Assembly (NCBI GenBank): GCA_040285825.1
Contig: JAUPSS010000004.1
Span: 5,547,784 to 5,611,783 of the forward strand
Origin: Eukaryota sp. TZLM1-RC
Taxonomy: Eukaryota > Protista > Metamonada: BaSk clade
Direction of reading: 5' to 3'
DNA length: 64,000 nt
Position 1 is the first letter of the stretch, and every line of letters begins with the position of its first letter. Below are positions 11,158-64,000 of this stretch, piece after piece. The position numbers and the translations under genes are program-made. Below the pieces are notes generated by a model, which was given only the letters and a program-made list of their open reading frames with translations, had not been told where the DNA came from and did no database searches.

Positions 11158-11329
11158 ATTTTTTAAATATATTTATTTAATAGAATACTTATAAATCAAC
11201 CTTTTAATAATCCAGCTCTCCCAAAACAAAACAACTAGCTGCAAGTCTCTCATAGGGAGACCCAAGAGAAAGCAAAGCATCAGAAACCATCTCCAAGATC
11301 CCCTTAAAAATAGAAAACACAATTCTATT
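11158..11329 (-). mobile_element. ~170-bp LINE 3'-end element (family C) with a probable TSD tttttgtcat
   Basis: Close match to the insertion at 34265-34434; A-rich tail; tttttgtcat at 11148-11157 and 11330-11339. Confidence 0.75.
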
Positions 11330-17828: not shown

Positions 17829-17958
17829 GATGGTTTCTGATGTTTTGTTTTCTCTTGGATCTCACTACCAGAGAGTTGCATCTAGTGTTTTTGTTTTGGG
17901 AGAGATGAATTATTTAGATGTTGATTTGTAAGTTTTCTAATAGATAAATATTATTAAA
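17829..17958 (+). mobile_element. Shorter copy of the family C LINE 3'-end element
   Basis: gatggtttctgatg...tctcttggatctcacta...gttttgggagagatg...gatgttgattt matches the reverse complement of 34265-34400. Confidence 0.75.
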
Positions 17959-18022
17959 ACAAAGTTTGAGCGCCTTTGATTCAACAACCTCAAATTGACA
18001 CATCTCGACTATCCACATCCAC

Positions 18023-33900: not shown

Positions 33901-35278
33901 TTTTGTAAAAACAGAATCATTTCTGACATTAATTCAAATATGAGTTTTTATTAATGGAATCTAATGATTCAAAAGAAAGTCAAGATTTAAATAAATTTTG
34001 TGAAGTTTGTGATCATTTAATGTTTACATTTGCAACTATCGGTTTACTATTGGATGCGGCCATACTTGGTCTATAGCACCAGATCCCATTCCGAATTCCG
34101 AAGATAAGCGGCCACAGGCTTGGTCAGTAGTTGGGTGGGAGACGACCAGCGAACACTGGGTGCTGCATCCTTTTGATATTTGGTTGCCTGACAATTATTG
34201 TTTTTAATTATCTGCTTAGTTAAGGCAGCAATGCTTCAATGTGACATCATTTTTTTAAAGAATTTTTTTTAATAATTTTAATTTTATTCTAAACCTATAA
34301 ATCAACATCTAAAAAATCCATCTCTCCCAAAACAAAAACACTAGATGCAACTCTCTCATAGTGAGATCCAAGAGAAAGCAAAGCATCGGAAACCATCTTC
34401 AACATCCCCTTAAAAATAGAAAACACAATTCTAGTTTTTAAAGAATTACAAATGTATTATAATCTAATTTTGTAAAAACAGAATCATTTCTGACATTAAT
34501 TCAAATATGAGTTTTTATTAATGGAATCTAATGATTCAAAAGAAAGTCAAGATTTTAATAAATTTTGTGAAGTTTGTGATCATTTAATGTTTACATTTGC
34601 AACTATCGCTTTACTATTGGATGCGGCCATACTTGGTCTATAGTACTGGATCCCATTCCGAATTCCGAAAATAAGTGGCCACAGGCTTGGTCAGTAGTTG
34701 GGTGGGAGACCACCAGCGAACACTGGGTGCTGCATCCTTTTGATATTTGGTTGCCTGACAATTATTGTTTTTAATTATCTGCTTAGTTAAGGCAGCAATG
34801 CTTCAATGCGACATCACAATTTTAAAGAATTACAAATGTATTATAATCTAATTTTGTAAAAACAGAATCATTTCTGACATTAATTCAAATATGAGTTTTT
34901 ATTAATGGAATCTAATGATTCAAAAGAAAGTCAAGATTTAAATAAATTTTGTGAAATTTGTGATCATTTAATGTTTACATTTGCAACTATCGGTTTACTA
35001 TTGGATGCGGCCATACTTGGTCTATAGCACCAGATCCCATTCCGAATTCCGAAGATAAGCGGCCACAGGCTTGGTCAGTAGTTGGGTGGGAGACCACCAG
35101 CGAACACTGGGTGCTGCATCCTTTTGATATTTGGTTGCCTGACAATTATTGTTTTTAATTCTCTGCTTATTTTAGGCAGTGGTGCTTCAATGCGACATCA
35201 CATTTTTAAAGAATTACAAATGTATTTTAATCTAGTTTTGTAACAACAGAATCATTTCTGACATTAATTCAAATATGA
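30981..35278 (+). rRNA. 5S rDNA array, left part: 11 genes (30981, 31364, 31748, 32132, 32517, 32901, 33285, 33668, 34052, 34619, 35003)
   Basis: 384-bp units of a 5S gene plus AT-rich spacer. Confidence 0.95.
34265..34434 (-). mobile_element. 170-bp LINE 3'-end insertion (family C) in a 5S spacer, with a 13-bp TSD
   Basis: This unit is 567 bp = 384+170+13; tttttaaagaatt at 34252-34264 and 34435-34447; minus strand reads RIVFSIFKGMLKMVSDALLSLG...DVDL* followed by an A tail. Confidence 0.9.
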
Positions 35279-38200
35279 TGTTGGCGCCCTAAGGCTTTTA
35301 TAATATGAATAGAAAATAAATTATCTTTATCTCAACCACTTTTGCAACCTAAGGCAACAATAATTATTGGCCGTATTAGGTTATAGGTATACCGTTTACA
35401 CAACTCACAGCTATCAAACAGAGGATATCTTCAGCGGATATCATGTCAGTCTCTCCTCGCCAGGACGCTGACTCCAGCCAAATTTTTTACATTAGTCAGA
35501 TGCAACAGTACGATAGAGATGCTTTAAGCATATGTACAACAACAGCAGGGACTGAAGAGTCAAATAAAGAAGAGGACTCGGGCTCGAGACCACCCTCCGC
35601 CCCTCCTCATGAGAAAGAAATGGAACCAGGCACGGAACCACCTCCCGCCTCTTCCAAATCAAAAACAATGGAACCAAACACGGAACCACCTCCCGCCTCT
35701 TCCATGTCAAACAAACCAGATAAGGTTTCAGGAACGGGACCACCCCCCTCCTCACCTAAAGAAAATGTTGGGTTAAGCTCGGATACTTCGTCTGCCCTAA
35801 AGGACTACGAAGAACTCCAGTCCGTTTTAGAAGAAATGGACGACGATGAAAAAGAGCTTCGCCAACAGATAATGAAGGACGCGGAAGCTCACCTTGAACC
35901 AACAGATTACTGTCTGTTCGAGCAGCTCCCTCCCCTTTGGAAGCAAATATCAAAATCTGGTAGAAATGTGGGATTCCAGACTCTGGGCCATAAAGGATAA
36001 CCCTAATAGAGTCTACGAATTCCCTCAAAATGAGAGAAGAGAACTCATTAACGCGTTGGACACTTTGAGTAGAGAGACCTATGGACGCGGGGCAGAACGC
36101 CGTCCTAGGATAACCGGTATGGATAGAGAGATCCATATGATTCTGGCAAAACCTATCAAAGATAGGCCTGATTGGGAAGCCATTCATTTAGATCAGTTCG
36201 GGAGAAGGATCAGGTTCTTAGCCATCGAACGAAGGAGCAGAACCGATACCGACGACATCCTGGAAACCAAATTACCGGCATGGATGGACTCGTACTTTGA
36301 TACGATCATTCATAACTACTCAGAGGTAGAGGATGGGGCTCCTACTTGTTTCAGAGAATACATGGAACAAGCAGACAGCACAAATCCAAGTAAGTTGGAT
36401 CCCGTCAGTGACTTCTTTGACGCGGACGCCCTAAATAACATACTCACGGAACGTTCAAGCGTATCCACATTTAGGAGCCGCCCAAATAACTTCATTCAGC
36501 AATTCGGGGAATCAACGACAAGGAAGAAGAAGTTCAGGTTCTTGGTCACGGGTGATCAATCAACAAAGCTCCACCAGAGACCTAAACTTCCTATAATTGC
36601 CCCCATTATATCTGAAAAAGAGCAACCGGTACAAGTCTGTTCCATTGACGTACTCCCTGATCACATCCCGACAGTAGATGTGACAGAACGAACAAACAGA
36701 CCTACCAGAGTGGTTCAGGGACCATCAAGTCCCTCCCAACCTATGCTCACTAGCGCATCAGAAGACGAAGTCGAGTTGAGAGGACCTAGTTTAGATGAAA
36801 CACCTCCTCCTCAACCCCCTCGTAGAAGAGTTACTTCTGAGGAGCCTCTCCGTTTGGAAGACCTCCAAGCTTCTAGAAACATTTTGGATATGAGTATAGC
36901 AAGTAGTCTTCAGAGACATGTGGACTCTCAGCCTAGGTCAGCTGAATATAAAGCCCCTCACCTATCTGAGAAAGACCCTCTCAACAAGATGTCTCTCGTC
37001 TCCTTCCTCCTCAAATTCCAAACATGGGACAAATACGGACGCAAGATAGCCAATCGAAGCTTTCAAGCCCCTGGTCAATCTGATTGGTCTCGTGCTATGT
37101 TGATAGCAACCCAAATATTTGGTGAAGGAAAGACCCAGATTACCCCTGAGTTGTTATCATCACTCCCATCTCACATCAGAGAAGAAATAGACAGGGACAT
37201 GAAACAGCCACTCTTAAGGATCGACCCAGAACTGACGAAACGTTTGGGACCTCCTATCCATCATTATGACTTATTCAGAAGTATGATGATAAGTACTTGT
37301 CCATCCGGCTTATCAAGCATGGTCGACCCCCATCTCATCTCTAGATGGCAAGGCCAAGGACTTCTAAGACCGGACTTCTCAGACGCTGAGTTAATGGTTT
37401 TTCTGCTACGCAGGACACAATTTACCTCATATCACGAGGCTTGCTCTGCCCTAGCAAAACCATGTATAAATTGGAGAAACATCCACAACAAAGTAGATGT
37501 GGACAACGAATTTGGTAGGTTCGTCGAAGATTTTGGAGACGTCCTGAGGATGACCACTTATATGGTTGATCACTCCATATCTGCATCAATTAGGGGAAAC
37601 AGCGGTTTAATAACCCTCTCACCCGCCCTTATTGCAGAATATTTTCTCTTGGGTATAGATAATTTTGCCATTACCAAGGAGCTAGCAAGCCATTGGACAA
37701 GAGAAGATCTATGGGACCCTTCAACAGGTACAACTTTGTTAGACCTGATTTCGACCACCAGGAGACACTTTTTAGCTTGGTGCCAAACAACAGGAAATAG
37801 GCACACTATGGAACTTTTGAGAAAACAAGCTGAAAGAGAAGAAGACATCCCACTAGGCCTTTCGACCATGAGAACGTTCTCTAGAGGAGCAACCCCATCT
37901 GGTCCAGGTACTAAACGTCGCTCGGGAGGCGGATCCAAAGGAACTCCCCAAAACAAATATGTCCCAGAAAGACATGAACGAGAGGGATCTAAGTTCTGTA
38001 CATTCTGTAACGTCACCGAAGGAAATAATCCTATCGGTCACACGGTTTTCGAATGCAAAGACCCCCGTTGTACCAGGAGCAAGGTACCAAAAGAATTGAG
38101 GTTCAAGATCGGCGAGGCTGATCAGCCTGCGAGAAGTGGCAGCGTAGTTAGAGGCCGAGGTGGCCGTGGTAGACGTATTTCTAGGTTTAGAGGTAGGGGC

Positions 38201-41200
38201 CGAGGTGGCCATTTTAGAGGACATAAAGGCAGAGGTCAATATAGACCTATTTATTACATAAACACACAAGAGGATACATCATCAACATCATCCCCTTCTG
38301 AGAACGTGTCAGCTAGTTCGAGCATGACCTCTCACAGACGGATTGACCGTTTCAGCAACAGGGTCAGAAACACTGGAAACTTTCCCAATCGGAAACAAAT
38401 CAACGCAATCAATCATAATCAATCAATTGCCGATTTCGGAAACCCAGTCAACAACTCCCCAACAGCTCAACAATTCTTACTAAATCCTCTACAATTCCAC
38501 AAACCCAGCTCTGATATCAACAGTATTTTTGGTATAAATTCTACGGTTAGTGAGAACCACATCAGATCCCAGCGTTCTCCATTTCTAAGATTGGAGATTT
38601 TAATAAATAATATAAAGACGATTGCAACTATTGATTCGGCAGCGTTTTGTTCGGTTATAACAGAAGATTTGGCTAACAAATGCAACATGTCAATTAATAG
38701 AGATGATACAATTGAGTTCTTGCCAGCCAATAACGTATCAAGTAAATCGCTAGGGAGTGCAAATGGTATTCTGTCGTTCAACGTAGGAAGCATTGCGCAC
38801 CAGGTACATTATAGACATACTCTTCCCATAATCCCGGGTTCGAACAAATTATTAATAGGGATAGACATGTTAAAAACACTTGGGCTTCAGACGGATGATG
38901 GTCTTTTCATTAGATTAGACAAAGAACACCGCACTTTGTTAAATGCAGAATCTGAATTCGACTCAAGAATCGCTCAACATTCGATTGGGACCTTAGATAA
39001 CCAATCATCGAGTCCTTCCGATTTTGAGGAGCAGTTAACTAGATCTGGTTGTGAGATAAAATTAGATGATGATAATAATAAATTAAAATTAACGAGTCTA
39101 CTAAGAATTTTCAGCGATGTTTTTAGTGAAACTCCAAACAGAAAAGGAATCGATTGTAAACCTCTAACAATCCCCTTTAGAGACGAAAATGCTATAGTAC
39201 ATAAACCTGCTAGACGATTAAATCCCAGCAAAATGGAAATAGCAAACAAAATATTTGATGAACTGATTGAAATGGGCTATGCAGTTGAATCTAATTAAAA
39301 ATTCAGCTCTCCTATTGTCTTAGTTATATATCCTGACGGCAAGAAACCCAGGTTAACGGGAGACTTTAGCGGTAAAGATGGAGTCAATGCCCACACGATT
39401 TCAGTAGAACCTAATCTACCTAGGATTAGTGATATTTTAGAATTTTTAAGTAGAGCAGATTACATAGCCACGCTTGATTTACCAAAAGCTTTCTGGCAAA
39501 TGAATGTAGCAGAAAAGGACATTGAGAAAACATCAATCTCAATCCCTGGAAGGTCAATTATGTTTAAAAGAGCTTGCTTCGGATTAAAGAACATCCCAGC
39601 AGTATTTCAAAATGTAATGATGGAAATATTCCAAATTGATGGCGTTTTCATATATATTGATGATATTATAATAGTTGGAACGACTTTCGATGAATTCTAT
39701 AAGAGATTACAAAGAGTCCTCCAATGTGCCAGAAATAGACGTGTAAATATAGGTTTACGTAAATGTAAATTCGTAACATCCAAACACCCTATTGATATTT
39801 TAGGAAGCACCTTCCAGGATAAAACCAGATTTATTAGTAAAAAAATCGAAGCCTTGATGAGAATCCCTAGACCAAAATCAGTGAAAGAAGTTCGCTCATT
39901 GGTAGGATCCATCAATTATATAAGAGATTGGCTTCCAGGTATTTCCGAATTAATAGCTCCAATTAATGAGTTAATTAAAGGAAAACCTAGAGTAATAAAA
40001 TGGACCAACGAGCATGACGATTATCTTAAACAAATAAAAGATTTAATAATTAATCACATGCCCCTTGAATTACCAGCTCCGGGCAAGCGCGTACTAATAA
40101 GTACCGACGCATCAGATGTAGCAGTTGGAGGCGTTATTTGGCAAGAAATTGAACCATACTCCCCTGCAGGAACCCCGCTGAATAAAAGAAAAGTGAAACC
40201 TTTGTCGTTCTATAGTAGATTACTTACAGAAACACAAAGGAAATGGTCCACTTTACAGAAAGAATTATATGCAATTCTTCTGATTTTAACTGAAAGTTGT
40301 TTAGAAAGCTACCTTTTGACTAGACATCTAACAATTTTCACCGATCACAAAAATATTGCATTCCTGGCCACAGCCCCAGAGAAAAATAGAATTGTAAAGA
40401 GATGGCTGCCGATACTATCTGAATTCGACTTTGATATAGTCCATGAACCAGGTGAAGATAACCACTGGGCAGATATGCTATCGGGGAATATTGATTTAGA
40501 TCAAGATGAGGAAACTCCTTCTATATGTAGTATAAATATACCAGATACTTTACTTTCGAATTACGAGATACCTCCTATAGACGATGATTCTGATTCGGAC
40601 TTCGAAGACATCCCATCAATTTCATCCCTAAGTAGACACCAAGACTTACCTATTTTTTCTTCTTGGTTCTCTAAAATCAGATCTGAACAACAAATAGCCA
40701 AAAATAATAATGACCCTCTATTTGAGAATGCAATTTTAGATGAAAATACTCAAATTTGGAAAAACAATAAAAATAAAATTTTAATTCCAAAAAGCCTCAG
40801 AAAACAGGCACTATTATTAATTCATGGATTGGTTCAATCAGGCCACCCCAGCAAAAACGACAGTCTACATAAACTGTCCAAAAGCGACTTTTTCTGGCCT
40901 AATATGAGAAAGGACCTCATAAACCACATCAAAAGATGCCCAACTTGTCAAAAAAACGGCACCAGTTAAAAGAACAAAAACACCCTCCACAGGTTCCCTT
41001 TGGGCAGATCGTCCTTTGCCAGACTAAATGTTGACACAATTGGACCTCTGAATACTGATAGTGATGGTAATAAATACTTATTAGTATTTGTAGATTCTTT
41101 TACTGGATATTCAATTTTTAGTCCCTCTGAAGGAACTCAATGCCTTAGAGACCGCAGACGCTTTGATTTGGAACGTTTGCGCAATTTTTGGCATACCTAT

Positions 41201-42347
41201 GTTAATTCATAGTGATAATGGTCCTGAGTTCGCCAATGAGACTTTTTAAGATAGTGTGTAATAGATTAGCTATTGAGATGAGTAACTCAATACCCCACTA
41301 CTCTGAAAGTAATGGACTCGTAGAGCGAAAACATAGAGACGTTCTACAATGCTTGAGGAAATTATTAATAGATTTTAATGATTACGGAAATTGGTCTACT
41401 TATGTACCCATATCCCAACTATTAATAAATTCCACTAAAAGCAGAAAGACAGGTTTTACACCTTACGAACTAATGTTCGGATCTTCGATTAGTCCAAGAT
41501 CGGACCCTGCAAACATATTAGGAAACTTATCAAAATTTGATTCCAATATACCTTTATTAGACGATATTAAAATGAAAAATACTCGTCTGCAAGAAAAAAA
41601 TGAAGAAGCAGAGCGTCATCAATCATTAAATACTCCGATTTCAGTAGACAATACTAATTCGCGTTCTATAGTATTTAATATTGGTGACTATGTCCTACGT
41701 AAAACCAAACAGAATAATAAATTACATGGATCTTGGAACGGACCCTTTTTAGTAATAGACCATCCTTCCAACTCCACTTTATTATTAAAGAATCTTATCA
41801 CTGGCAGTGAATTAAAGGCTGCTAAGAAAGATTGTAAAATCTATAACGCAGATAATCCTCAGGATATCGAATTTCTAAAGGCAGTCGCAGCAGGCGATGC
41901 TGAGAAACATGTTATAGAGAAAATCCTCTCAGAATATAATTCTGACTCAGGTAGTTTCTGTACTGTTCAATGGTTTGGCGGTGAGACAACAGAAGAGCCT
42001 CTCCATTCAGTTAAACATTCAGAAGCTTACAAGTTGTTCAGCAGGAATAACAAGAAAATTGGAAAACGTACCTCTAGTCAACGTAAGAGTACCTCCAATA
42101 ACTCTACGCCTTGCAAGAGGCCTAGACGCAGTACTAGAATTAGGAAGTGATGCTAATTCTCAGTTTAGATTAGGTTATTTGTAGTTATTTAGTTATTTAG
42201 TTATTTGTTTATAGTTTAGATTCATATTTATATAAGCCTATTAGCTCTGCAAAAGGGAAGAAGCAGTGTTGGCGCCCTAAGGCTTTTATAATATGAATAG
42301 AAAATAAATTATCTTTATCTCAACCACTTTTGCAACCTAAGGCAACA
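35279..42347 (+). mobile_element. Full-length Ty3/gypsy LTR retrotransposon with a chromodomain-like tail, inserted in a 5S spacer
   Basis: Identical 81-bp LTRs TGTTG...CAACA (35279-35359, 42267-42347); TSD ATGA; polypurine tract (PPT) aaaagggaagaagcag at 42251-42266; domain order Gag-PR-RT-RH-IN. Confidence 0.95.
35443..42150 (+). pseudogene. gag-pol polyprotein, broken into five ORFs by indels and one stop
   Basis: Zn knuckle CTFC-x10-H-x4-C, RG-rich tract, protease IDSAA/LIGIDML, RT LDLPKAFWQ/FGLKN/YIDD, RNase H TDASD/KELYAI/TDHKN, integrase GHP/CPTCQ/VDTIGP/SDNG/NGLVER, chromo-like VIEKIL...VQWFG...EEP. Confidence 0.9.
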
Positions 42348-45300
42348 ATGAGTTTTTATTAATGGAATCTAATGATTCAAAAGAAAGTCAAGATTTAAAT
42401 AAATTTTGTGAAGTTTGTGATCATTTAATGTTTACATTTGCAACTATCGGTTTACTATTGGATGCGGCCATACTTGGTCTATAGCACCGGATCCCATTCC
42501 GAATTCCGAAGTTAAGCGGCCACAGGCCTGGTCAGTAGTTGGGTGGGAGACCACCAGCGAACACTGGGTGCTGCATCCTTTTGATATTTGGTTGCCTGAC
42601 AATTATTGTTTTAATTCTCTGCTTATTTAAAGCAGCGGTGCTTCAATGCGACATCACAATTTTAAAGAATTACAAATGTATTTTAATCTAGTTTTGTAAC
42701 AACAGAATCATTTCTGACATTAATTCAAATATGAGTTTTTATTAATGGAATCTGATGATTCAAAAGAAAGTCAAGATTTTTAATAAATTTTGTTAAGTTT
42801 GTGATCATTTAATGTTTACATTTGCAACTATCGGTTTACTATTGGATGCGGCCATATTTGGTCTATAGCACCGGATCCCATTCCGAATTCCGAAGTTAAG
42901 CGGCCACAGGCCTGGTCAGTAGTTGGGTGGGAGACCACCAGCGAACACTGGGTGCTGCATACTTTTGATATTTGGTTGCCTGACAATTATTGTTTTTAAT
43001 TCTCTGATTATTTTTAGGCAGTGGTGCTTCAATGCGACATCACATTTTTAAAGAATTACAAATGTGTTTTAATCTAGTTTTGTAACAACAGAATCATTTT
43101 TGACATTAATTCAAATATGAGTTTTTATTAATGGAATCTAATGATTCAAAAGAAAGTCAAGATTTAAATAAATTTTGTGAAGTTTGTGATCATTTAATGT
43201 TTACATTTGCAACTATCGGTTTACTATTGGATGCGGCCATACTTGGTCTATAGCACCAGATCCCATTCCGAATTCCGAAGATAAGCGGCCACAGGCTTGG
43301 TCAGTAGTTGGGTGGGGAGACCACCAGCGAACACTGGGTGCTGCATCCTTTTGATATTTGGTTGCCTGACAATTATTGTTTTTAATTATCTGTTTAGTTA
43401 AGGCAGCAATGCTTCAATGTGACATCATTTTTTTAAAGAATTACAAATGTATTATAATCTAATTTTGTAAAAACAGAATCATTTCTGACATTAATTCAAA
43501 TATGAGTTTTTATTAATGGAATCTAATGATTCAAAAGAAAGTCAAGATTTTAATAAATTTTGTGAAGTTTGTGATCATTTAATGTTTACATTTGCAACTA
43601 TCGCTTATTGGATGCGGCCATACTTGGTCTATAGCACCGGATCCCATTCCGAATTCCGAAGTTAAGCGGCCACAGGCCTGGTCAGTAGTTGGGTGGGAGA
43701 CCACCAGCGAACACTGGGTGCTGCGTCCTTTTGATATTTGGTTGCCTGACAATTATTGTTTTTAATTATCTGCTTAGTTAAGGCAGCAATGCTTCAATGT
43801 GACATCATTTTTTTAAAGAATTACAAATGTATTATAATCTAATTTTGTAAAAACAGAATCATTTCTGACATTAATTCAAATATGAGTTTTTATTAATGGA
43901 ATCTAATGATTCAAAAGAAAGTCAAGATTTAAATAAATTTTGTGAAGTTTGTGATCATTTAATGTTTACATTTGCAACTATCGCTTATTGGATGCGGCCA
44001 TACTTGGTCTATAGCACCGGATCCCAATCCGAATTCCGAAGATAAGCGGCCACAGGCTTGGTCAGTAGTTGGGTGGGAGACCACCAGCGAACACTGGGTG
44101 CTGCATCCTTTTGATATTTGGTTGCCTGACAATTATTGTTTTTAATTCTCTGATTATTTTAGGCAGTGGTGCTTCAATGCGACATCACATTTTTAAAGAA
44201 TTACAAATGTGTTTTAATCTAGTTTTGTAACAACAGAATCATTTCTGACATTAATTCAAATATGAGTTTTTATTAATGGAATCTAATGATTCAAAAGAAA
44301 GTCAAGATTTAAATAAATTTTGTGAAGTTTGTGATCATTTAATGTTTACATTTGCAACTATCGGTTTACTATTGGATGCGGCCATACTTGGTCTATAGCA
44401 CCGGATCCCATTCCGAATTCCGAAGTTAAGCGGCCACAGGCCTAGTCAGTAGTTGGGTGGGAGACCACCAGCGAACACTGGGTGCTGCGTCCTTTTGATA
44501 TTTGGTTGCCTGACAATTATTGTTTTTAATTATCTGCTTAGTTAAGGCAGCAATGCTTCAATGTGACATCATTTTTTTAAAGAATTACAAATGTATTATA
44601 ATCTAATTTTGTAAAAACAGAATCATTTCTGACATTAATTCAAATATGAGTTTTTATTAATGGAATCTAATGATTCAAAAAGAAAGTCAAGATTTAAATA
44701 AATTTTGTGAAATTTGTGATCATTTAATGTTTACATTTGCAACTATCGGTTTACTATTGGATGCGGCCATACTTGGTCTATAGCACCGGATCCCATTCCG
44801 AATTCCGAAGTTAAGCGGCCACAGGCCTGGTCAGTAGTTGGGTGGGAGACCACCAGCGAACACTGGGTGCTGCATCCTTTTGATATTTGGTTGCCTGACA
44901 ATTATTGTTTTAATTCTCTGCTTATTTAAAGCAGCGGTGCTTCAATGCGACATCACAATTTTAAAGAATTACAAATGTATTTTAATCTAGTTTTGTAACA
45001 ACAGAATCATTTCTGACATTAATTCAAATATGAGTTTTTATTAATGGAATCTGATGATTCAAAAGAAAGTCAAGATTTTAATAAATTTTGTTAAGTTTGT
45101 GATCATTTAATGTTTACATTTGCAACTATCGGTTTACTATTGGATGCGGCCATACTTGGTCTATAGCACCGGATCCCAATCCGAATTCCGAAGATAAGCG
45201 GCCACAGGCTTGGTCAGTAGTTGGGTGGGAGACCACCAGCGAACACTGGGTGCTGCATCCTTTTGATATTTGGTTGCCTGACAATTATTGTTTTTAATTC

Positions 45301-51300: not shown

Positions 51301-54300
51301 ATAGCACCGGATCCCATTCCGAATTCCGAAGTTAAGCGGCCACAGGCCTGATCAGTAGTTGGGTGGGAGACCACCAGCGAACACTGGGTGCTGCATCCTT
51401 TTGATATTTGGTTGCCTGACAATTATTGTTTTAATTCTCTGCTTATTTAAAGCAGCGGTGCTTCAATGCGACATCACAATTTTAAAGAATTACAAATGTA
51501 TTTTAATCTAGTTTTGTAACAACAGAATCATTTCTGACATTAATTCAAATATGAGTTTTTATTAATGGAATCTGATGATTCAAAAGAAAGTCAAGATTTT
51601 AATAAATTTTGTTAAGTTTGTGATCATTTAATGTTTACATTTGCAACTATCGGTTTACTATTGGATGCGGCCATACTTGGTCTATAGCACCGGATCCCAT
51701 TCCGAATTCCGAAGTTAAGCGGCCACAGGCCTGGTCAGTAGTTGGGTGGGAGACCACCAGCGAACACTGGGTGCTGCATCCTTTTGATATTTGGTTGCCT
51801 GACAATTATTGTTTTTAATTCTCTGATTATTTTAGGCAGTGGTGTTTCAATGCGACATCACAATTTTAAAGAATTACAAATGTATTTTAATCTAGTTTTG
51901 TAACAACAGAATCATTTCTGACATTAATTCAAATATGAGTTTTTATTAATGGAATCTGATGATTCAAAAGAAAGTCAAGATTTTAATAAATTTTGTTAAG
52001 TTTGTGATCATTTAATGTTTACATTTGCAACTATCGGTTTACTATTGGATGCGGCCATACTTGGTCTATAGCACCGGATCCCATTCCGAATTCCGAAGTT
52101 AAGCGGCCACAGGCCTGGTCAGTAGTTGGGTGGGAGACCACCAGCGAACACTGGGTGCTGCATCCTTTTGATATTTGGTTGCCTGACAATTATTGTTTTT
52201 AATTCTCTGATTATTTTAGGCAGTGGTGTTTCAATGCGACATCACATTTTTAAAGAATTACAAATGTATTTTAATCTAGTTTTGTAACAACAGAATCATT
52301 TCTGACATTAATTCAAATATGAGTTTTTATTAATGGAATCTAATGATTCAAAAGAAAGTCAAGATTTAAATAAATTTTGTGAAGTTTGTGATCATTTAAT
52401 GTTTACATTTGCAACTATCGGTTTACTATTGGATGCGGCCATACTTGGTCTATAGCACCGGATCCCATTCCGAATTCCGAAGTTAAGCGGCCACAGGCCT
52501 GGTCAGTAGTTGGGTGGGAGACCACCAGCGAACACTGGGTGCTGCATCCTTTTGATATTTGGTTGCCTGACAATTATTGTTTTTAATTCTCTGCTTATTT
52601 TAGGCAGTGGTGCTTCAATGCGACATCACATTTTTAAAGAATTACAAATGTGTTTTAATCTAGTTTTGTAACAACAGAATCATTTCTGACATTAATTCAA
52701 ATATGAGTTTTTATTAATGGAATCTGATGATTCAACAGAAAGTCAAGATTTTAATAAATTTTGTTAAGTTTGTGATCATTTAATGTTTACATTTGCAACT
52801 ATCGGTTTACTATTGGATGCGGCCATACTTGGTCTATAGCACCGGATCCCATTCCGAATTCCGAAGTTAAGCAGCCACAGGCCTGGTCAGTAGTTGGGTG
52901 GGAGACCACCAGCGAACACTGGGTGCTGCATCCTTTTGATATTTGGTTGCCTGACAATTATTGTTTTTAATTCTCTGCTTATTTTAGGCAGTGGTGCTTC
53001 AATGCGACATCACATTTTTAAAGAATTACAAATGTATTTTAATCTAGTTTTGTAACAACAGAATCATTTCTGACATTAATTCAAATATGAGTTTTTATTA
53101 ATGGAATCTAATGATTCAAAAGAAAGTCAAGATTTAAATAAATTTTGTGAAGTTTGTGATCATTTAATGTTTACATTTGCAACTATCGCGTTACTATTGG
53201 ATGCGGCCATACTTGGTCTATAGCACCGGATCCCATTCCGAATTCCGAAGTTAAGCGGCCACAGGCCTGGTCACCAGCGAACACTGGGTGCTGCATCCTT
53301 TTGATATTTGGTTGCCTGACAATTATTGTTTTTAATTCTCTGCTTATTTAAGGCAGCGGTGCTTCAATGCGACATCACAATTTTAAAGAATTACAAATGT
53401 ATTTTAATCTAATTTTGTAACAACAGAATCATTTCTGACATTAATTCAAATATGAGTTTTTATTAATGGAATCTGATGATTCAACAGAAAGTCAAGATTT
53501 TAATAAATTTTGTTAAGTTTGTGATCATTTAATGTTTACATTTGCAACTATCGGTTTACTATTGGATGCGGCCATACTTGGTCTATAGCACCGGATCCCA
53601 TTCCGAATTCCGAAGTTAAGCGGCCACAGGCCTGGTCACCAGCGAACACTGGGTGCTGCATCCTTTTGATATTTGGTTGCCTGACAATTATTGTTTTTAA
53701 TTCTCTGCTTATTTAAGGCAGCGGTGCTTCAATGCGACATCACAATTTTAAAGAATTACAAATGTATTTTAATCTAATTTTGTAACAACAGAATCATTTC
53801 TGACATTAATTCAAATATGAGTTTTTATTAATGGAATCTGATGATTCAACAGAAAGTCAAGATTTTAATAAATTTTGTTAAGTTTGTGATCATTTAATGT
53901 TTACATTTGCAACTATCGGTTTACTATTGGATGCGGCCATACTTGGTCTATAGCACCGGATCCCATTCCGAATTCCGAAGTTAAGCGGCCACAGGCCTGG
54001 TCAGTAGTTGGGTGGGAGACCACCAGCGAACACTGGGTGCTGCATCCTTTTGATATTTGGTTGCCTGACAATTATTGTTTTTAATTCTCTGATTATTTTA
54101 GGCAGTGGTGCTTCAATGCGACATTACATTTTTAAAGAATTACAAATGTGTTTTAATCTAGTTTTGTAACAACAGAATCATTTTTGACATTAATTCAAAT
54201 ATGAGTTTTTATTAATGGAATCTAATGATTCAAAAGAAAGTCAAGATTTAAATAAATTTTGTGAAGTTTGTGATCATTTAATGTTTACATTTGCAACTAT

Positions 54301-54725: not shown

Positions 54726-56790
54726 TGCTCATTAGACTTTAGAAGTTCATGTATATCAGCAGTAGGTTAGACTGGAACATCTTCTATGGAAGAAAGATGA
54801 GTAGAAAGAGGGTGAAGAGTGTGAAGTAGAGAGACAAGGTAATAATAAGTATTCAGATGTCTAGTTTCAAGACAAGAAGTGCAGCTGAAAGGGGTGACAC
54901 AGCAGAAGTTGTTGGCACAGCTTGGGATGGACGATCTGCAATAGACTCGAGTTTAGACTCAAGAATAGCCAGCAGTGCCTCTACAGACTGTCTTTTGTTA
55001 GTCTATTTTAGGGATTCAATGTTTTATAGTCAATGTGTGAGCGCACTAAACGAAACCTATAATCGCTATAATAGAAAAGCCAACAGTTCCACAAAGATCC
55101 ATGGCGAATTCAGATATAGTTGAACGAGGAGCAAAAGGTTCTTCGTCAAAGAGGGAAAGAAATGGTAAGAAAGAAACGGGTGTTGTGACTTCCCTTGGTA
55201 ACGTGTTTGTACTGAATAAGGGAATTAAATTGTGAAACTTTACGAATTTTTTGAATCTACAAACACCCTTGATTAAATGAACAACTGCTTTGACTAACAA
55301 CAATTTCATCAAATTTCACATCAGTTTACTATTTTTAGGAAAGAAAATGCTTAAAGCATGCCCAGTATCTATTATAAATGTGTCTATTTATCAGTTTGTG
55401 CATGTTCCATTGTTTTGTGGATGTAAGGAGTTGAAAATACACCAAATTTTAAAAGTAGCTGAAACTGAGAAATCAATCATTTTTGATTGTCTGCACCTTC
55501 CGTTTTCAGTAAGGACTACTGAAGACGGAGTAATTAATGTTTGGTGACGCTCTGCTTCTTCCCTTTTTTCTTGTAGACGAGTGTTTTTCATTTTAATGTC
55601 ATCTAGTAAAGGGATATTAGTTTCAAATTTGGATAAATTTCCTAATATATTAGCAGGGTCTGTTCTTGGACTAATCGAAGAACCGAACATCAGTTCGTAG
55701 GGGGTAAAACCAGTTTTTCTGCTTTTAGTAGAATTTATTAATAGTTGGGATATAGGTACATAAGTAGACCAATTTCCGTAGTCATTAAAATCTATTAATA
55801 GTTTCCTTAAGTATTGAAGAACGTCTCTATGTTTACGTTCTACAAGTCCATTACTTTCTGAATAGTGGGGAATTGAGTTACTCATCTCAATCGCTAATCT
55901 ATTACACACTATTTTGAAAGTCTCATTGGCGACCTCAGGTCCATTATCGCTATGAATTAACATAGGTATGCCAAAAATTGCGCAAACGTTCCAAATCAAA
56001 GCATCTGCGGTTTTTAAGGCATTGAGTTCTTTTAGAGGGACTAAAATTGTATATCCAGTAAAAGAGTCTACAAAAACTAATTGATATTTATTTCCTTCGT
56101 TGTCAGTGTTCAGAGGTCCAATTGTATCGACGTTTAATCTGGCGAATGGACGATCTGCCCATAGAGATCCTGTGGAAGGTGTTTTTGATCTTTTAACTGG
56201 AGCCGTTTTTTGACAAGTTGGGCAACTTTTGACATGATTTATGAGGTCCTTTCTCATATTAGGCCAGTAGAAGTCACTTTTGGATAGTTTGGGTAAACTA
56301 TCGTTTTTGCTGGGGTGGCCAGATTGAACTAAACCATGTATTAATAATAGTGCCTGTTTTCTGAAGCTCTTTGGAATTAAAATTTTATTTTTATTATTTT
56401 TCCAAATTTGAGTATTTTCATCTAGAATTGCATTTTCAAATAAAGAGTCATTGTTGTTTTTGGCTACTTGTTGTTCAGATCTTATTTTAGAGAACCAAGA
56501 AGAAAAAATGGGTAAGTCTTGGTGTCTACTTAAAGATGAAATTGATGGGACATCTTCAAAGTCCGAATCAGAATCATCGTCTAATGGAGGTATCTCGTAA
56601 TTCGAAAGTAAAGTATCTGGTATATTTATACTACAAATAGAAGGAGTTTCCTCGTTTTGATCCAAATCAATATTCCTCGATAGCATATCTGCCCAATGGT
56701 TATTTTCACCAGGTTCATGGACTATATCAAAGTCGAATTCAGATAGTATCGGCAGTCATCTCTTTACAATTCTATTTTTCTCTGGGACTG

Positions 56791-59700
56791 TGATGATCTG
56801 TGGGGGTTAGACATTGAGTATACCTTAAATGTAGAGTAATTTATTACAAGGGAATGAGGATTTCCCTTAACTTAAGCGCATGGGCGCAATAATACAATAA
56901 CTATGAATAAACTATAAATAAACTAATATAAATATTATCCAAGGCTAACACTGCCCTTTCTTCTTTTCGAGCGTCGAGGCCTGATAGGAGTTGGATTAAC
57001 ATTATTGTTAATTTTATCAGAACGACGTTTACGGCGTGAAGGACGAGAGCGAGTATTAGAAATAGACTTGGAGAATTCTTTATAAGCAGAGGTGTTTTGA
57101 ACAGTCGAAACCAGTTCAGTGGTAATATGATTGCCAGGCCATTGGACTTGACAGTAATCACCATCCTGACTGAGGACTTTCTGGATCACGTGCTCTTTTG
57201 CATCGCCAGCAGCAACCCAGGAGTAAAATTCATCATCTGCTGGTAAACTGGAATGCCAAGGTTGGAGGTGCTTCACACTGGCTTTAACAACCATACCAGT
57301 ACACAGATTCTTGATGTCAGCTGTGGAGGTAGAGGGTGTGTTAATAACTAAGAATGGCCCTTTGTAATTACCATGTAACTTAGCAGTGGAAGACGAAGCT
57401 CGTTTGACCAATTGGCCAGGAGAGAAAGGGTTGGCTTTGATTTGGGCATCACGAGGAGGAGCCTTGGAAGCTTGACGGAGCGCTGCTTCCTCCTGTTTCT
57501 TCTTCAATCTAGCAAATTTAGATTGAATGTCGTTGATATATGTTGACTCAGACGTTGAGCTTTCGAGGGTCTCTATGATTTTGCCGGAGTCAGCTCTGGG
57601 GCGAAAATCTGAACCAAACATGAGCTCGTATGGAGAGTAACCTGTAATCGAACTCTTGGATGAGTTGATTAACAATTGTACATAGGGTATGTACTCTGAC
57701 CATGCATCGTAGGCGTTAAAATCTACGAGCAGCTTCCTCAAATTTTGCAAAATGTCACGGTGACGGCGTTCGACTAAACCGTTGGACTGAGAAAAGTGAG
57801 GGACGGACTTTGAGACCTCTATGCCCAAAAATTCACATAGGGCGTCGAAGACAGCTTTTGAGAACTCAGGACCGTTGTCACTATGAACTATGAACGGGAT
57901 CCCGAATATCGCACATACCTTCCATATGAGAGCGTCGGCAGTAAGGTTGGCGTTGAGTTCTTTGAGAGGGACAATGATAGTGAACCTCGTGAAGCTATCC
58001 ACAAATACAAAAATGTATCTGATTGATTCATCTTGTTGATCATTTTGAGACTCAATGCTCAAAGATGAGAAAACAGTGTCTGTATCCACTGGGTCAGGAT
58101 CAGAGGTTCTCAATTCTACTGGGTCATGACTGCTTGGATAGTAACTTTCCAAAATACCATCAATGTTAACCCATAGAAGAGAACTTGAATTGGTGACACC
58201 AATGTTCTCTTGTACATTCAATAGGGCATCCCTTAGAGGCCTATTCCTTCTGTGCTCTGGACCAAAATATGACGCGCAATGGTCTGGTCTGCGGTCTTGA
58301 AGGTACAATCTCTGATAGTTCGTAGTGTAGGGGTACCACCATCCAGTCCTGAAGTCTCTGTTGATATAAATATCAAGAGAAGCATTGTATCCAGGGCTAA
58401 ACCTGGGAAAAGGACATGGATTACACCGGTTGAGGAAGAGATTCAGCTCATCACCAGCGAAGATCCTCTGTACACCTTCACGAAGAGTCCTGAACCCTCC
58501 AACAGTCTCCCGTTGAGGATAATTTGGAGGAGGGTCACAACGAACCGTGAGATTGTCTACTTCCTCCGTTGGGAAGTAGGGGCCTATTCTTCTGCGGATC
58601 CTAAAGCCGTGATCATTAACCACTTCTGGACCCCAAAATGGGGGTAAAGCAGCAATGAGTTCATTGGGAGGAATCGATGCAGGATCTCCTTGCATTAACT
58701 CAATACCAGCATTGAGAACTAAGTTTTGAGCTTCAGTTCTCTGCTGAGTAGAGATGAAAGGAGAATCTGATTCCTGGGGCTGGCTTGGGGCTTGATAGGT
58801 GTTGAGCTGTGCAGCACTAAGCACCTGCCAAGCAGCAGGAACAGAAAAAACAACGTGACCTTGCTGAGGAGTCTGGCCAGAGGTTGGAGGGATATGAATT
58901 ACTCCTCTAGTAGGAACTCCCGAAGGAGGAACAGGTGGAGTTGAATGGACTTCTGTAGGAGCTACCGTAGTAGGAGCAGAAGTATCAGGAAGACCTGCTA
59001 CAGGAGCTTCTTGGGAAGGAGTAGTAGGATTAGGGTTACCAGCAGGGACTGCAGGAAGAGCTGGTTGTTGCGGTGGGCTGCTTTCCATTGGAACTTCCAT
59101 AGAAGGAATGGAAGGAGCTCGTTGTCCTTCCTCAGGAACTTCCGAAGAAGGAGTCGAAGGGGCTTGTTGTCCTTCCTCAGGAACTTCCGAAGAAGGAGTG
59201 GAAGGGACGACAGGAGCGCAAACTATAGGTGAAGAGGGAGACTCCACCATCTTGAGCTTCAACAGCTCGGATATCTTGTTGCTGGCCGAGTCAGGACCAG
59301 TCTGGTTGATATTATACTTCAGATATTCATCTAAAGTACTGAACTGTTCAGGACCTAAAAGGGAATCTTCAACCTCTCCTTCAGAACCAGGGGGAGGAGA
59401 AAGAGGTACAAAGTTTTCCACATTAGAGGGAGAAACAGGAAGACTGATAGGAACCACAGGAACATCCGTGGATGGAGTGGGACCTTGACCCGGAGGGTGA
59501 GAGGAAGTATCACTTCTCTCGCCACCAGAGGGTAGTTCTGTTCCCAACTGAGGAGTTTGGGAGGAAGAACTTGAAGCATTGGGTTGTGTGACAGAATCTC
59601 CAGAAGGAGGAGTCGACACAGGAGGAGGAGAAGCATTGCTTCCCTCGGACCCAGTTGTCAAGGGTTGTTCTGGTCCCGACTGAGGAGTTCGGGAGGAAGA

Positions 59701-59943
59701 ACTCGAAAGGTGAGACGTAGGAGGATCAGTCCTAACAGTCTCGAAGGTGTCATTGGAACCACCCAAAGGTGATCCAATACGTATTGATGATCTGTGGGGG
59801 TTAGACATTGAGTATACCTTAAATGTAGAGTAATTTATTACAAGGGAATGAGGATTTCCCTTAACTTAACGCATAGACGCAATAATACAATAACTATGAA
59901 TAAACTATAAATAAACTATTATAAATATTATCCAAGGCTAACA
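56791..59943 (-). mobile_element. Nested non-autonomous LTR element (3153 bp) of a second family
   Basis: LTRs 59785-59943 (159 bp) and 56791-56950 (160 bp), TG...CA on the minus strand, ~4 differences; TSD ACTG splits the host RNase H region; PPT aaaagaagaaagggcag next to the 3' LTR. Confidence 0.92.
56935..59808 (-). CDS. 957-aa ORF: Pro/Ser-rich region plus Gag N-terminal-like region fused to an integrase core and chromo-like tail; no PR, RT or RNase H
   Basis: FVDSFTRF, HSDNGPEF, SNGLVERRH, GPF, HVIQKVL...VQWPG; LPPFW, DHGFRIR and FAGDELN resemble LPPLW, DQFGRRIR and FDADALN in the N-terminus of the full element. Confidence 0.8.
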   Translation of the reverse strand: MSNPHRSSIRIGSPLGGSNDTFETVRTDPPTSHLSSSSSRTPQSGPEQPLTTGSEGSNASPPPVSTPPSGDSVTQPNASSSSSQTPQLGTELPSGGERSDTSSHPPGQGPTPSTDVPVVPISLPVSPSNVENFVPLSPPPGSEGEVEDSLLGPEQFSTLDEYLKYNINQTGPDSASNKISELLKLKMVESPSSPIVCAPVVPSTPSSEVPEEGQQAPSTPSSEVPEEGQRAPSIPSMEVPMESSPPQQPALPAVPAGNPNPTTPSQEAPVAGLPDTSAPTTVAPTEVHSTPPVPPSGVPTRGVIHIPPTSGQTPQQGHVVFSVPAAWQVLSAAQLNTYQAPSQPQESDSPFISTQQRTEAQNLVLNAGIELMQGDPASIPPNELIAALPPFWGPEVVNDHGFRIRRRIGPYFPTEEVDNLTVRCDPPPNYPQRETVGGFRTLREGVQRIFAGDELNLFLNRCNPCPFPRFSPGYNASLDIYINRDFRTGWWYPYTTNYQRLYLQDRRPDHCASYFGPEHRRNRPLRDALLNVQENIGVTNSSSLLWVNIDGILESYYPSSHDPVELRTSDPDPVDTDTVFSSLSIESQNDQQDESIRYIFVFVDSFTRFTIIVPLKELNANLTADALIWKVCAIFGIPFIVHSDNGPEFSKAVFDALCEFLGIEVSKSVPHFSQSNGLVERRHRDILQNLRKLLVDFNAYDAWSEYIPYVQLLINSSKSSITGYSPYELMFGSDFRPRADSGKIIETLESSTSESTYINDIQSKFARLKKKQEEAALRQASKAPPRDAQIKANPFSPGQLVKRASSSTAKLHGNYKGPFLVINTPSTSTADIKNLCTGMVVKASVKHLQPWHSSLPADDEFYSWVAAGDAKEHVIQKVLSQDGDYCQVQWPGNHITTELVSTVQNTSAYKEFSKSISNTRSRPSRRKRRSDKINNNVNPTPIRPRRSKRRKGSVSLG

Positions 59944-62900
59944 ACTGTGGTCAGGCATGCAATGTTTTTATGATCTGTGAAAATTGTTAAATGTCTAGTT
60001 AACAAGTAGTTTTCTAAACAACTTTCAGTTAAAATCAAAAGTATTGCATATAATTCTTTTTGTAATGTGGACCATTTTCTTTGTGTTTCTGTAAGTAATC
60101 TACTATAGAATGACAAAGGTTTTACTTTCCTTTTATTTAGCGGGGTTCCTGCAGGGGAGTAGGGTTCAACTTCTTGCCAAATTACGCCTCCTACTGCTAC
60201 ATCTGAAGCGTCAGTATTTATCAATATTCGCTTGCCCGGAGCCGGTAATTCAAGGGGCATGTGGTTTACTGTTAGCATGATTATGACTATTTGGGATGTT
60301 CTTTAATCCGAAGCAAGCTCTTTTAAACATGATTGACCTTCCAGGAATTGAGATTGATGTTTTCTCAATATCCTTTTCAGCTACATTCATCTGCCAGAAA
60401 GCTTTTGGTAAATCAAGCGTGGCGATGCAATTTGCTCTACTCAAAAATTCTAAAATATCACTAATCCTAGGTAGATTAGGCTCTACTGAAATCGTATGGG
60501 CATTAACTCCATCTTTACCACTAAAGTCTCCAGTTAACCTGGGTTTCTTGCCGTCAGGATATATAACTAAGACAATAGGAGAGCTGAATTTATAATTAGA
60601 TTCAACTGCATAACCCATTTCGATCAGTTCATCAAATATTTTGTTTGCTATTTCCATTTTGCTGGGATTTAACCGTCTAGCAGGCTTGTGTACTATAGCA
60701 TTCTCATCTCTAAAGGGGATTGTTAGAGGATTACAATCGATTCCTTTTCTATTAGGAGTTTCACTAAAAACATCGCTGAATAATTTAGTAGACTCGTTAA
60801 TTTTAATTTATTATTACTATCATCTAAATTTATCTCACATCCAGATCTTGCTAATTGCTCCTCAAAATCAGAACCACTTGGTGATTGGTTATCTAAGTTC
60901 CCAATCGAATGTTGATCGATCCTAGAGTCGAATTCTGATTCTGCATTTAGCAAAGTGCGGTGTTCTTTGTCTAATCTAATGAAAGGACCATCATCCGTCT
61001 GAAGCCCAAGTGCTTTTAACATGTCTGTCCCTATTAATAATTTGTTCGAACCCGGGATTATGGGAAGAGTATGTTTATAATGAACTTGTTGCGCAATGCT
61101 TCCTACGTTGAAGGACAGAATACCAGTTGCACTCCCTAGCGATTTTGTGGATACGTTATTAGCTGGTAAGAACTTAATAGTATCCTTGCTATTGATTGAC
61201 ATATGGCATTGTTCAGCTAAATCTGCAGTAATAACTGAACAAAACGCTGCCGAATCTATAGTCGCAATCATTTTAATATCATTTATTGATATCTCCAGTC
61301 TTAGAAATGGAGAACGCTGGGACCTGATGTGGTTTTCACTAACCGTAGAATTAATATCAAAAATACTATTGATGTCAGAGCTGGATTGGTGAATTAGTAG
61401 AGGAATAAAAAGATTTTGTTGAGCTGTTGGAAAGTTGTTGACCGGGTTTCCTAAATCGGTTGTTGATTGATTGTGATTGATTGCGTTGATGTGTACCCGA
61501 TTAGGTAAGTTGCCTGTCCTGCTGTTCCGGTTGCTGTAGTTGATCCGTCTATGAGGAACCGTACTCGAACGGGTCGGTTTTGACTCAGTAGGGGATGCGT
61601 TTGATGATATATTCTCTGTAGTGTTGATGTTATAAATAGGTCTGTACTGACCTCTACCTTTATAACCTCTAAAACGGCCTCCACGGCCTCTAAATTTGAA
61701 TCTATGTACACGTCTACCACGACCACCTCGGCCCCTATCTACACTGCCTCTACTAGCAGGCGCCTCCTGTTCTCCTAATCTAAATCTTTCCTCTTTGGGA
61801 ACTCTGCTTCTAGCACAACAAGGGTCTTTGCATTCGAATACAGTGTGGCCAACAGGATTGTTACCTTCGACGTTGCTGCAGAATGTACAGAATTTTGATC
61901 CTTCTCGTTCATGCTTTTCAGGGATGTATTTGTGTTGAGGGGTTCCTCTTGACTTTCCACCTGATCGTCTTACTCGTTTTGATGGAGCCTGGGCTGATGG
62001 TGTTACTCCTCTTGAGTAAGTTCTCATCGCCGTGAGTCCCAAAGGAATATCTTCTTCATTAGCCCTGTTCCTTAGTACATCCATTGTGGGTTTGTTTCCT
62101 GCTGTGTAACACCAAGCGAGGAAATGTCTTCTCGTTGTTGATATCAAATCGAGTAGAGTTGTTCTGTTCGGTGAGTCCCACAAGGATTCCCTAGTCCATA
62201 CTGGAAGGAGTTCACTTGATATAGCAAAGTTATCCAAACCCATAAGGAAGTACTCGGCTATTAGAACGGGAGATATGGTTATCAGCCCACTGCTTCCTCT
62301 AATTGAATCGGGTATGGTTAGGTCGGTCATGTAGGTGGTCATTCTCAAGACGTCTCCAAAATCTTCTACATAACGACCAAACTCGTTGTCAGCCTCATGC
62401 CTATTGTGGATTTTTCTCCAGTTAATTCTAGGCTTCATTAGAGCTGTACAGGCCTCGTGATATGATGTGAATTGTGTTCTTTTTAACAGAAATACCATGA
62501 CGTCGGCGTCGGTATAATCAACACCGAGTAAACCTTGACTTTGCCATCTGGATAAAAGGCTAGGGTCAATCATGCTGGATATTCCTGTAGGGCAAGTGCT
62601 CATCATCATGCTCCTAAATAAATCATAATGGTGGATTGGGGGTCCGAGCTTATCTGTTATAGCTGGGTCAATCCTTACCAAAGGCTGTGTTGTATCCCTG
62701 GTGATCTCGTCGCGTATATGTTTGGGGAGATCTTTAATCCTATCTTGGGTTATTTCTGCTTGGCCTTCTCCAAATAGCTGGGTAGCTATCAAAAGGCTCT
62801 GGTCCAATCTGATTGACCTGGGGCTTCAAAGCTTCTATTAGCTATCTTTCGCCCGTATTTATCCCAAGTTTTTAAAAGAAAAGCTATGATAGACATTTTG

Positions 62901-64000
62901 TTGATAGGGTCATCAGCGGATAATCGAGGTCTTTTATAGTCGATATCCTTAGACCGTGGATCAATCTGTCTATGAAGGCTACTAGCTATGCTCATGTCAA
63001 TAGCTCTTCTTGAGGATTGTAGGTCCTCAATACGCATAGATCTGTCGGAAGAAGAGTTTCTTACTGAGGGTTGAGGAGGAGCCGTTTCTCCAACGACTGG
63101 CCCGTTCAACTCTATGTCTTCTCCGATTACACATTCCATAGGTTGGAAGGAAGTTGGTTCTTCCTGAGGAGCAACGTCTTGTTTTGTTACAGGTTCCGGG
63201 ACGTTCACTGTTGGAACGTGTTGGGGTATGCTGTCGATAGAGCAGACCTGTATTGGTTGGCTTTTTTCAGAAATAAAAGGAGCTACAACAGGCAATTTCG
63301 GAAGGTGGAGAGATGTGGATGGATCTTCCGTTACCCATTGTCTAAACTCTGGTTGTTTCGTGAACGAGTTACCATGTTGTTGGATGTAGTTGTTAGGACG
63401 GTTCCCATACGTGGATACAGCTGATCGTTCCGTATGAATGTTATTTAAAGCGTCTGCATCGAACCAGGGTGTTACTGGTTCAAGCTTATCTTGTTCACTA
63501 CTGTCCTCCTGCTCCATGAATTCCCTAAAATATGTGGGAGCACCCTCTGTCAGCTCCGTGTAGTTATGGATTTCCGTATCAAAGTTAGGATCAAACCAGG
63601 CAGGCAATTTGGATTGTAGGATGTCTTCCGAGTCGGTCCTACTTCTCTGCTCGATGGAGAGAAACCTTATTCTTCTGCCATGTTGGTCTAGGAAGAAAGC
63701 CTTCCAATCGAATCTATCCTTGATGGAAAGGGACATCATCTCGTTAAATCTTTTTGTCCATGCCAGAGATTCTGGGACGTCGCTCTGCGTTACGCCCGAA
63801 CGTCTCTTTGCTCAATTTATCAAGAGCTTTGATGAGTTCATTCCTTTCATTGAGGGGAATTTCTGATACCTTTTGGGTATCCCCAACCATACCGAGGGTG
63901 TGGAAACCAACGTTTTTGCCTCTTTTACGAATGTAACTCCACAGAGGAGGAAGCTGCTCGAATAGACAGAAATCTGTTGGTTCGAGGTAAGCTTCCGCAT

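Follow-up and report, generated by a model that had tools for sequence, protein, structure and literature searches.

The analysed window, a 64,000-nt stretch of DNA from the protist Eukaryota sp. TZLM1-RC, contains arrays of a 384-bp 5S rDNA repeat, with 48 Rfam 5S rRNA matches, and the LTR retrotransposons designated here A, B and C (Table 1); no tRNA genes were found within its 64 kb. The closest named proteins, which are 93-98% identical, carry the label 'Eukaryota sp. TZLM1-RC'; proteins labelled GEM-RC1 and TZLM3-RCL come next. The labels TZLM1-RC and TZLM3-RCL denote skoliomonads, as does the name Skoliomonas sp. GEMRC, and the host of elements A and C is an anaerobic flagellate. Skoliomonas sp. 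GEMRC itself is described as a free-living metamonad (PMC11316075).

Table 1. Coordinates of the retrotransposon features in the window
Feature	Position	Strand	Remarks
A left TSD, ATGA	35275-35278	+	right copy 42348-42351
Element A	35279-42347	+	inserted in 5S rDNA spacer of array
A 5' LTR, 81 bp, TGTTG...CAACA	35279-35359	+	
A U5 arm, AACCTAA-GGC plus 2-nt bulge AA	35346-35357	+	predicted fold
A 12-nt palindrome, CAATAATTATTG	35358-35369	+	perfect; LTR CA, 8-nt spacer (35360-35367) and TG
A leader arm, GCC-GTA-TTAGGTT	35370-35382	+	predicted fold; pairs with U5 arm
A gag-pro-RT-RNaseH-IN region	35443-42150	+	possibly with divergent chromodomain
A polypurine tract, then CAG	42251-42266	+	
A 3' LTR	42267-42347	+	
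Element B, A-related, host of C	55508-64000	-	5' end outside window
Element C, nested in B	56791-59943	-	
C 3' LTR	56791-56950	-	TSD CAGT
C single 957-aa ORF	56938-59808	-	Gag N-terminal part fused to integrase C-terminal part
C polypurine tract and CAG	56951-56968	-	
C 12-nt palindrome, CAATACGTATTG	59775-59786	-	perfect; same register as in A, within U5/leader stem 59757-59802
C 5' LTR	59785-59943	-	gag ATG at 59808 inside U5

Elements A and C are of the Ty3/gypsy type, as judged from the domain order PR-RT-RNaseH-IN assigned by Pfam in the window ORFs and in full-length relatives, and both display the LTR hallmarks of this type, namely TG...CA termini, a target site duplication (TSD), and a polypurine tract. 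The two LTRs of A are 100% identical across 81 bp, and the copy is interrupted by a frame change near 35.9-36.0 kb, a stop at 39296, and a break at 40967-41206; the usual acidic motifs are present in the translation of its RNase H region. The LTR pair of C is 97.5% identical, and C derives from an autonomous family by internal deletion. A Pfam search of the integrase C-terminus gave no chromodomain match, and the Atlas look-alikes of the integrase tail include a Chromo cluster at 0.93, with a weak HMM alignment; the integrase of these elements may carry a divergent chromodomain. A CAG trinucleotide separates the polypurine tract from the LTR in both A (42264-42266) and C (56951-56953). The nearest 5S gene downstream of element A is ~110 bp away, a single insertion that does not imply targeting; Tj1 prefers Pol III genes (PMC4600332).

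Several other features of the window deserve mention. A dispersed repeat of ~170 bp with a T-rich start (34263-34437, 11159-11327, and 17829-17959), one copy of which lies in a 5S spacer, is bounded by apparent 8-bp TSDs (TTAAAGAA and TTTGTCAT) and looks like a retroposed SINE-like element. The 5S copies at 53199-53299 and 53564-53664 have the same internal deletion of ~19 nt. The region 2251-4569 contains a RUN-domain/Rubicon-homology gene with a ~2.3-kb array of 51-nt repeats, and positions 1-451 and 764-1225 form an inverted pair of ~460-bp repeats that are 84% alike.

The site directly after the LTR is normally where a host tRNA binds to start the copying of an element. In A, the LTR-terminal CA is followed by ATAATTAT-TGG, and in C by ATACGTAT-TGG, so that the TGG lies 8 nt from the LTR in both, not within a few nucleotides as in canonical tRNA-primed elements. 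The position of the site, the palindromes, and the LTR limits are all read directly from the DNA of the window, and the limits were set independently of the palindrome, from LTR identity and TSDs. Thus fixed, the junction of A bears the perfect 12-nt palindrome that the preliminary description reported, and its reading of the TG as the pairing partner of the LTR-terminal CA is supported. At any one site a 12-nt palindrome is expected by chance with a probability of 3.6e-4; 28 such 12-mers occur in the window. The nested element C had been presented as showing the same design in the same register with an LTR unrelated in sequence. Design and register hold, but the RTs of A and C are 65.5% identical, as in related families of one clade, and their LTRs have TTTATAATA (LTR positions 19-27) and AATAAATTA in common. 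The shared design is thus inherited rather than independent, and a pair of such kindred elements carries little weight by itself. Beyond the stem of A lies a second palindrome, GGTATACC (35386-35393), which is also present in a subfamily whose bulge differs. The LTR of A begins with TGT-TGGCGCCC (35282-35289), in which TGGCGCCC resembles the start of a tRNA-Lys PBS; this likeness is probably due to chance because C lacks TGGCGCCC.

The hairpin at 35346-35382, which had been placed alongside the palindrome as a principal feature, is indeed the minimum free energy structure in the form described (-9.2 kcal/mol), but it does not hold as the main signal: its z score is -1.75, with 12 of 200 shuffled sequences folding as well, and for C the corresponding values are -0.63 and 54 of 200. 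Four longer fold contexts gave z scores of -0.39 to +1.36, and in some longer monomer folds of C a downstream hairpin competes and wins. The real signal is the palindrome, and the hairpin alone is weak. Within one hairpin, the central bases of the spacer belong to a 4-nt loop, where they have no possible partner. Between two RNAs, the predicted homodimers reach -30.4 kcal/mol for the 37-mer of A (1 of 300 shuffles as low) and -38.7 kcal/mol for the 46-mer of C (0 of 300), each consisting of three duplexes, U5-leader, palindrome-palindrome, and leader-U5; the gain of the dimer over the monomers is unremarkable for A (matched by 30 of 300 shuffles) and is matched by 3 of 300 for C. A fragment cut at spacer position 8 is predicted to bind the partner RNA at -16.8 (A) and -17.5 (C) kcal/mol, with its 3' end adjoining the LTR-terminal A. 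Of the primers suggested initially, the partner genome in a dimer fits this geometry, and a fold-back RNA can be set aside, the fragment ending at spacer position 8 folding on itself at 0.0 kcal/mol.

Further copies of both elements were compared as DNA. In other A copies, from contigs of runs X1 and X2, no substitution is listed in 35346-35381, the list not covering differences near contig ends. The leader bulge of these copies is 2 nt instead of 3 nt, and one base is deleted at 35375 and one at 35377; close to the stem, the leader differences on the list are confined to the 3' bulge and its immediate neighbourhood, altering the sequence after the TGG. A diverged C copy from run X3 differs across 59730-59930 by 11 letters and 7 gap positions, and all of the listed differences lie at 59828-59900, on the U3 side, away from the palindrome. 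A metagenome search based on the RT protein yielded 32 pattern matches but no confirmed relative.

Further junctions can be approached through proteins. In most families of this clade, translation of gag begins within U5, at an ATG ~15-30 nt ahead of the LTR end, so that the proposed primer site is coding as well, in any of the three frames; since Gag starts in U5 and reads through the junction, its N-terminus reports the junction DNA. The junctions of A and C were read as DNA, and those of the other families were back-inferred from predicted proteins, a procedure in which third codon positions are hidden, Arg codons are ambiguous, and frame 2 leaves an ambiguity. Calibration was provided by C, whose gag reads S-I-R-I-G across the palindrome in its own DNA, and by A, whose DNA reads Q-P-K-A-T-I-I-I-G and G-N-N-N-Y-W across the site; the Gag of A starts downstream of the palindrome, and its site is non-coding. 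In decoding, I..I was taken as A-T and V..T as G-C at spacer positions 1 and 8 (the outer pair), and a central I as AT, R as CG (provided that Arg is encoded by CGN, as it is in C), and A as GC. In frame 1, S-I-R-I-G occurs in the C family, the P0293 family, P0477, and P0507, T-I-I-I-G in the P0133 family, S-I-A-I-G in P0130, T-V-I-T-G in the P0217 family and P0299, T-V-R-T-G in P0287, T-V-I-T-V in P0425 and P0598, and T-V-R-T-V in P0296. Frame 2 contributes Q-Y-I-L and Q-Y-V-L (P0263 and P0256), and frame 3 contributes G-N-N-N-Y-C (P0431), compared with G-N-N-N-Y-W in the DNA of A. Decoded in this manner, ~15 families fit a palindrome across three reading frames, with apparently concerted changes both at the centre (AT, CG, GC, and probably TA) and in the outer pair (A-T or G-C). 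The motif ATAnnTAT originally put forward is accordingly too narrow, as the proteins of relatives point to GT-..-AC forms. By the same evidence, three lineages carry TGT or TGY in place of TGG. A constraint on the peptide was considered and rejected: the motif is found in three frames and is non-coding in A, which argues for constraint at the nucleotide level.

A screen of 495 proteins recovered 59 with a 5-mer at most one residue from a frame-1 template at residues 4-14; two of these were internal starts and were dropped, leaving 57, among them 40 with S-I-R-I-G (one being the window's own). None of the 57 frame-1 N-termini has a mixed outer pair, and none has a non-palindromic centre. Two copies among the frame-1 matches end in D or E, corresponding to TGA. 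P0514, a Gag of the same clade, begins with A-T-R-I-G, which would break pair 2-7 if it spans the junction, and is a possible exception to the palindrome rule. When 32 N-termini were checked, most aligned inside other family members, and a few others were uninformative. Palindrome-compatible windows at residues 6-11 were present in 12 of 161 distinct N-termini versus 2.9 expected (P 6e-5), a figure to be read in the light of a residue range picked after seeing the data, of families found by searching for such motifs, and of two chance matches in internal starts among the 12.

In a quick RT tree of 50 rows, with Tf1 and sushi outside the sample, the 24 skoliomonad rows form a clade of their own against the 26 others, with support of 100. 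Changes were counted on a careful 16-row RT tree; P0130, P0507, P0598, and P0514 are absent from the trees. With junction states taken from the proteins, the centre requires five changes among 13 labelled rows, of which 2-3 are forced by well-supported (starred) branches, and the outer pair requires two among 11 rows. TGG is present in 10 of 13 tree rows, and its replacement arose three times. Every change of the centre replaces both bases and yields another palindrome-compatible dinucleotide.

Because the centre cannot pair within a hairpin yet appears to covary, pairing between two RNAs is likely; such covariation shows pairing, not priming. The notion that the site replaces the tRNA PBS, as initially proposed, is supported, with the palindrome adjoining the LTR end in A and C and with lineages that, to judge from their proteins, lack the TGG. 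The dimer, the cleavage, and the priming are what we infer beyond this, and we lean, by a modest measure of confidence, toward a palindrome that is at once primer and primer-binding site, such that one genome of a dimer is cleaved behind the palindrome and serves in trans as primer for the other. Two genomic RNAs in the particle would pair through the palindrome, and one would be cleaved immediately 3' of spacer position 8, presumably by the RNase H of the element, by analogy with Tf1, in which the cut is made by its RNase H. The new 3' end would then prime minus-strand DNA on the partner RNA at the LTR end, without a tRNA. The RNA primer would itself be copied during plus-strand synthesis, so that a change on one side of the site would be mirrored or reverted, which would account for the near-exclusive occurrence of palindromic variants. 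More tentatively, and with rather more doubt than belief, we suggest that priming in trans through a palindrome could be a third general route by which LTR elements start reverse transcription, in addition to tRNA priming and the cis self-priming of Tf1, with one genome sacrificed and a self-repairing symmetry, and with independent origins in Gypsy (skoliomonads) and Copia (fungal GalEa).

The palindrome might alternatively serve only to start genome dimerisation, like PAL1/PAL2 of Ty1 or the retroviral DIS, with a separate primer nearby. The dimerisation of Ty1 is driven by palindromes (PMC6844567), and the covariation and the dimer energies would fit this reading equally well; the palindrome, however, occupies the very spot where the primer must bind, and Ty1 keeps its tRNA PBS separately (PMC6844567). 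Moreover, families and even individual A copies differ in the sequence further downstream, so that no second conserved PBS is visible, and we regard a role in dimerisation alone as unlikely, if worth keeping in view. The symmetry could also act at the DNA stage, as a cDNA-end hairpin or as the site of a dimeric protein, or it could arise incidentally when the cDNA end is copied. The arrangement CA-N8-TG does resemble an LTR-LTR junction, and in the three inferred TGT families the palindrome would lengthen to 14 nt. A protein site would nevertheless fix the letters, whereas both the centre and the outer bases vary, and the primer would be left unexplained, which makes a DNA-stage role rather improbable.

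Priming by a cellular RNA at the TGG, be it a tRNA 3' end, a tRNA half, or a 5' fragment of 5S rRNA, with the extra bases trimmed by integrase, would account for the TGG that follows the spacer in A, in C, and in most rows of the tree, and DGLT-A offers an example of a TGG without an identified tRNA (PMC5006619). In A, TGGCCGTATT pairs with nt 2-11 of 5S rRNA at -17.0 kcal/mol. Nevertheless, the TGG is apparently lost in three lineages, the bases after it differ among A copies, the pairing of C with 5S rRNA is poor (-9.5 to -9.8 kcal/mol), and the covarying spacer would go unexplained; a cellular primer is therefore very unlikely in our estimation. The 5S fragment itself, whose 10 pairs in A include two G-U, was treated as a chance match because it is broken in an A subfamily and poor in C. 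Classical self-priming of the Tf1 type, from the transcript's own 5' end, is suggested by the resemblance of the integrase tail to chromodomain families and by the self-priming of Tf1/sushi chromoviruses (10.1101/2022.12.06.519325). It would call for a complement in the LTR, yet direct inspection of the LTRs found no such cis primer, the longest Watson-Crick complement of the spacer start being 6 nt in A and 4 nt in C, and the best LTR duplexes of the first 8-11 nt having only -1.3 to -5.4 kcal/mol. This renders such self-priming highly improbable. A primer encoded elsewhere in the element was likewise not supported, the longest complement of the sequence starting at TGG being 5 nt in A and 8 nt in C.

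The feature is real, and its published precedent of the same kind is the unexplained palindromic site of the fungal GalEa elements. How PBS-less elements such as these are primed has been left open in print, and the skoliomonad clade adds what GalEa lacks, namely symmetry-keeping variation at an unpairable centre, together with lineages that appear to be devoid of TGG. The covariation points to pairing of two RNAs and specifies where precisely a cut should be sought. Should priming in trans through the palindrome prove true, it would constitute a new host-independent priming route, give the RNA dimer a direct catalytic role, and explain a class of LTR elements missed by PBS-based annotation. 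Our literature search, incomplete for subscription papers, found no published description of priming in trans through a palindrome, and no publication using 'palindromic primer binding site' in the context of reverse transcription; plant surveys distinguish three primer types (PMC6317226).

In the fungal Ty1/copia elements of the GalEa group, which have no tRNA PBS, the LTR is immediately followed by a 'Conserved Hairpin Site', an 8-nt palindrome set between the last A of the LTR and a T (Donnart et al. 2017; PMC5445492); the site was proposed there as a PBS replacement, with no mechanistic model offered. Among 44 families, 25 have CTGATCAGT, 14 have CTAATTAGT, and 5 are mixed or other, the CTAATTAGT form being found in low-GC families (PMC5445492), where it may represent RIP damage. 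Bivalve TRIMs have been likened to GalEa (PMC6934838). Like GalEa, elements A and C have an A/T-flanked 8-nt palindrome adjoining the LTR, but in contrast to these Copia elements their domain order is that of Gypsy. Whereas the GalEa site is nearly fixed, the outer pair and the centre appear to covary in the proteins of skoliomonad elements, and Gag often reads through the site in the latter, unlike in GalEa. The GalEa site pairs with the downstream CHSeq2, in contrast to the pairing of U5 with the leader in A and C; the inverted CHSeq2 hairpin is absent from the folds of A and partial in C, and the spacer letters differ from both CTGATCAGT and CTAATTAGT.

Dictyostelium Skipper and DGLT-A are, like A and C, Gypsy elements of protists with unsolved priming, but Skipper has a polypyrimidine tract and DGLT-A has its TGG 2 bp from the LTR, compared with 8 nt in A and C (PMC5006619); the available text of that paper makes no mention of 'palindrom'. 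With PAL1/PAL2 of Ty1 and the retroviral dimer-initiation palindromes, A and C have in common a short palindrome of the 5' region through which two genomes could pair (PMC6844567), but the Ty1 and retroviral palindromes, as they are described, coexist with a separate tRNA PBS, whereas that of A and C takes the PBS position. Like the Tf1/sushi elements (Tf1, Tj1, Tosmo), A and C would combine a presumably tRNA-free site directly after the LTR, three predicted duplexes around it, and possibly a chromodomain (PMC4600332, 10.1101/2022.12.06.519325). In Tf1, which needs a three-duplex 'pretzel' (10.1101/2022.12.06.519325), the primer is reported to be the RNA's own 5' end, acting in cis on a non-palindromic PBS, and the LTRs of A and C lack such a complement. 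The three duplexes of A and C are predicted to form only between two RNAs and would thus represent a between-molecule version of the Tf1 'pretzel'.
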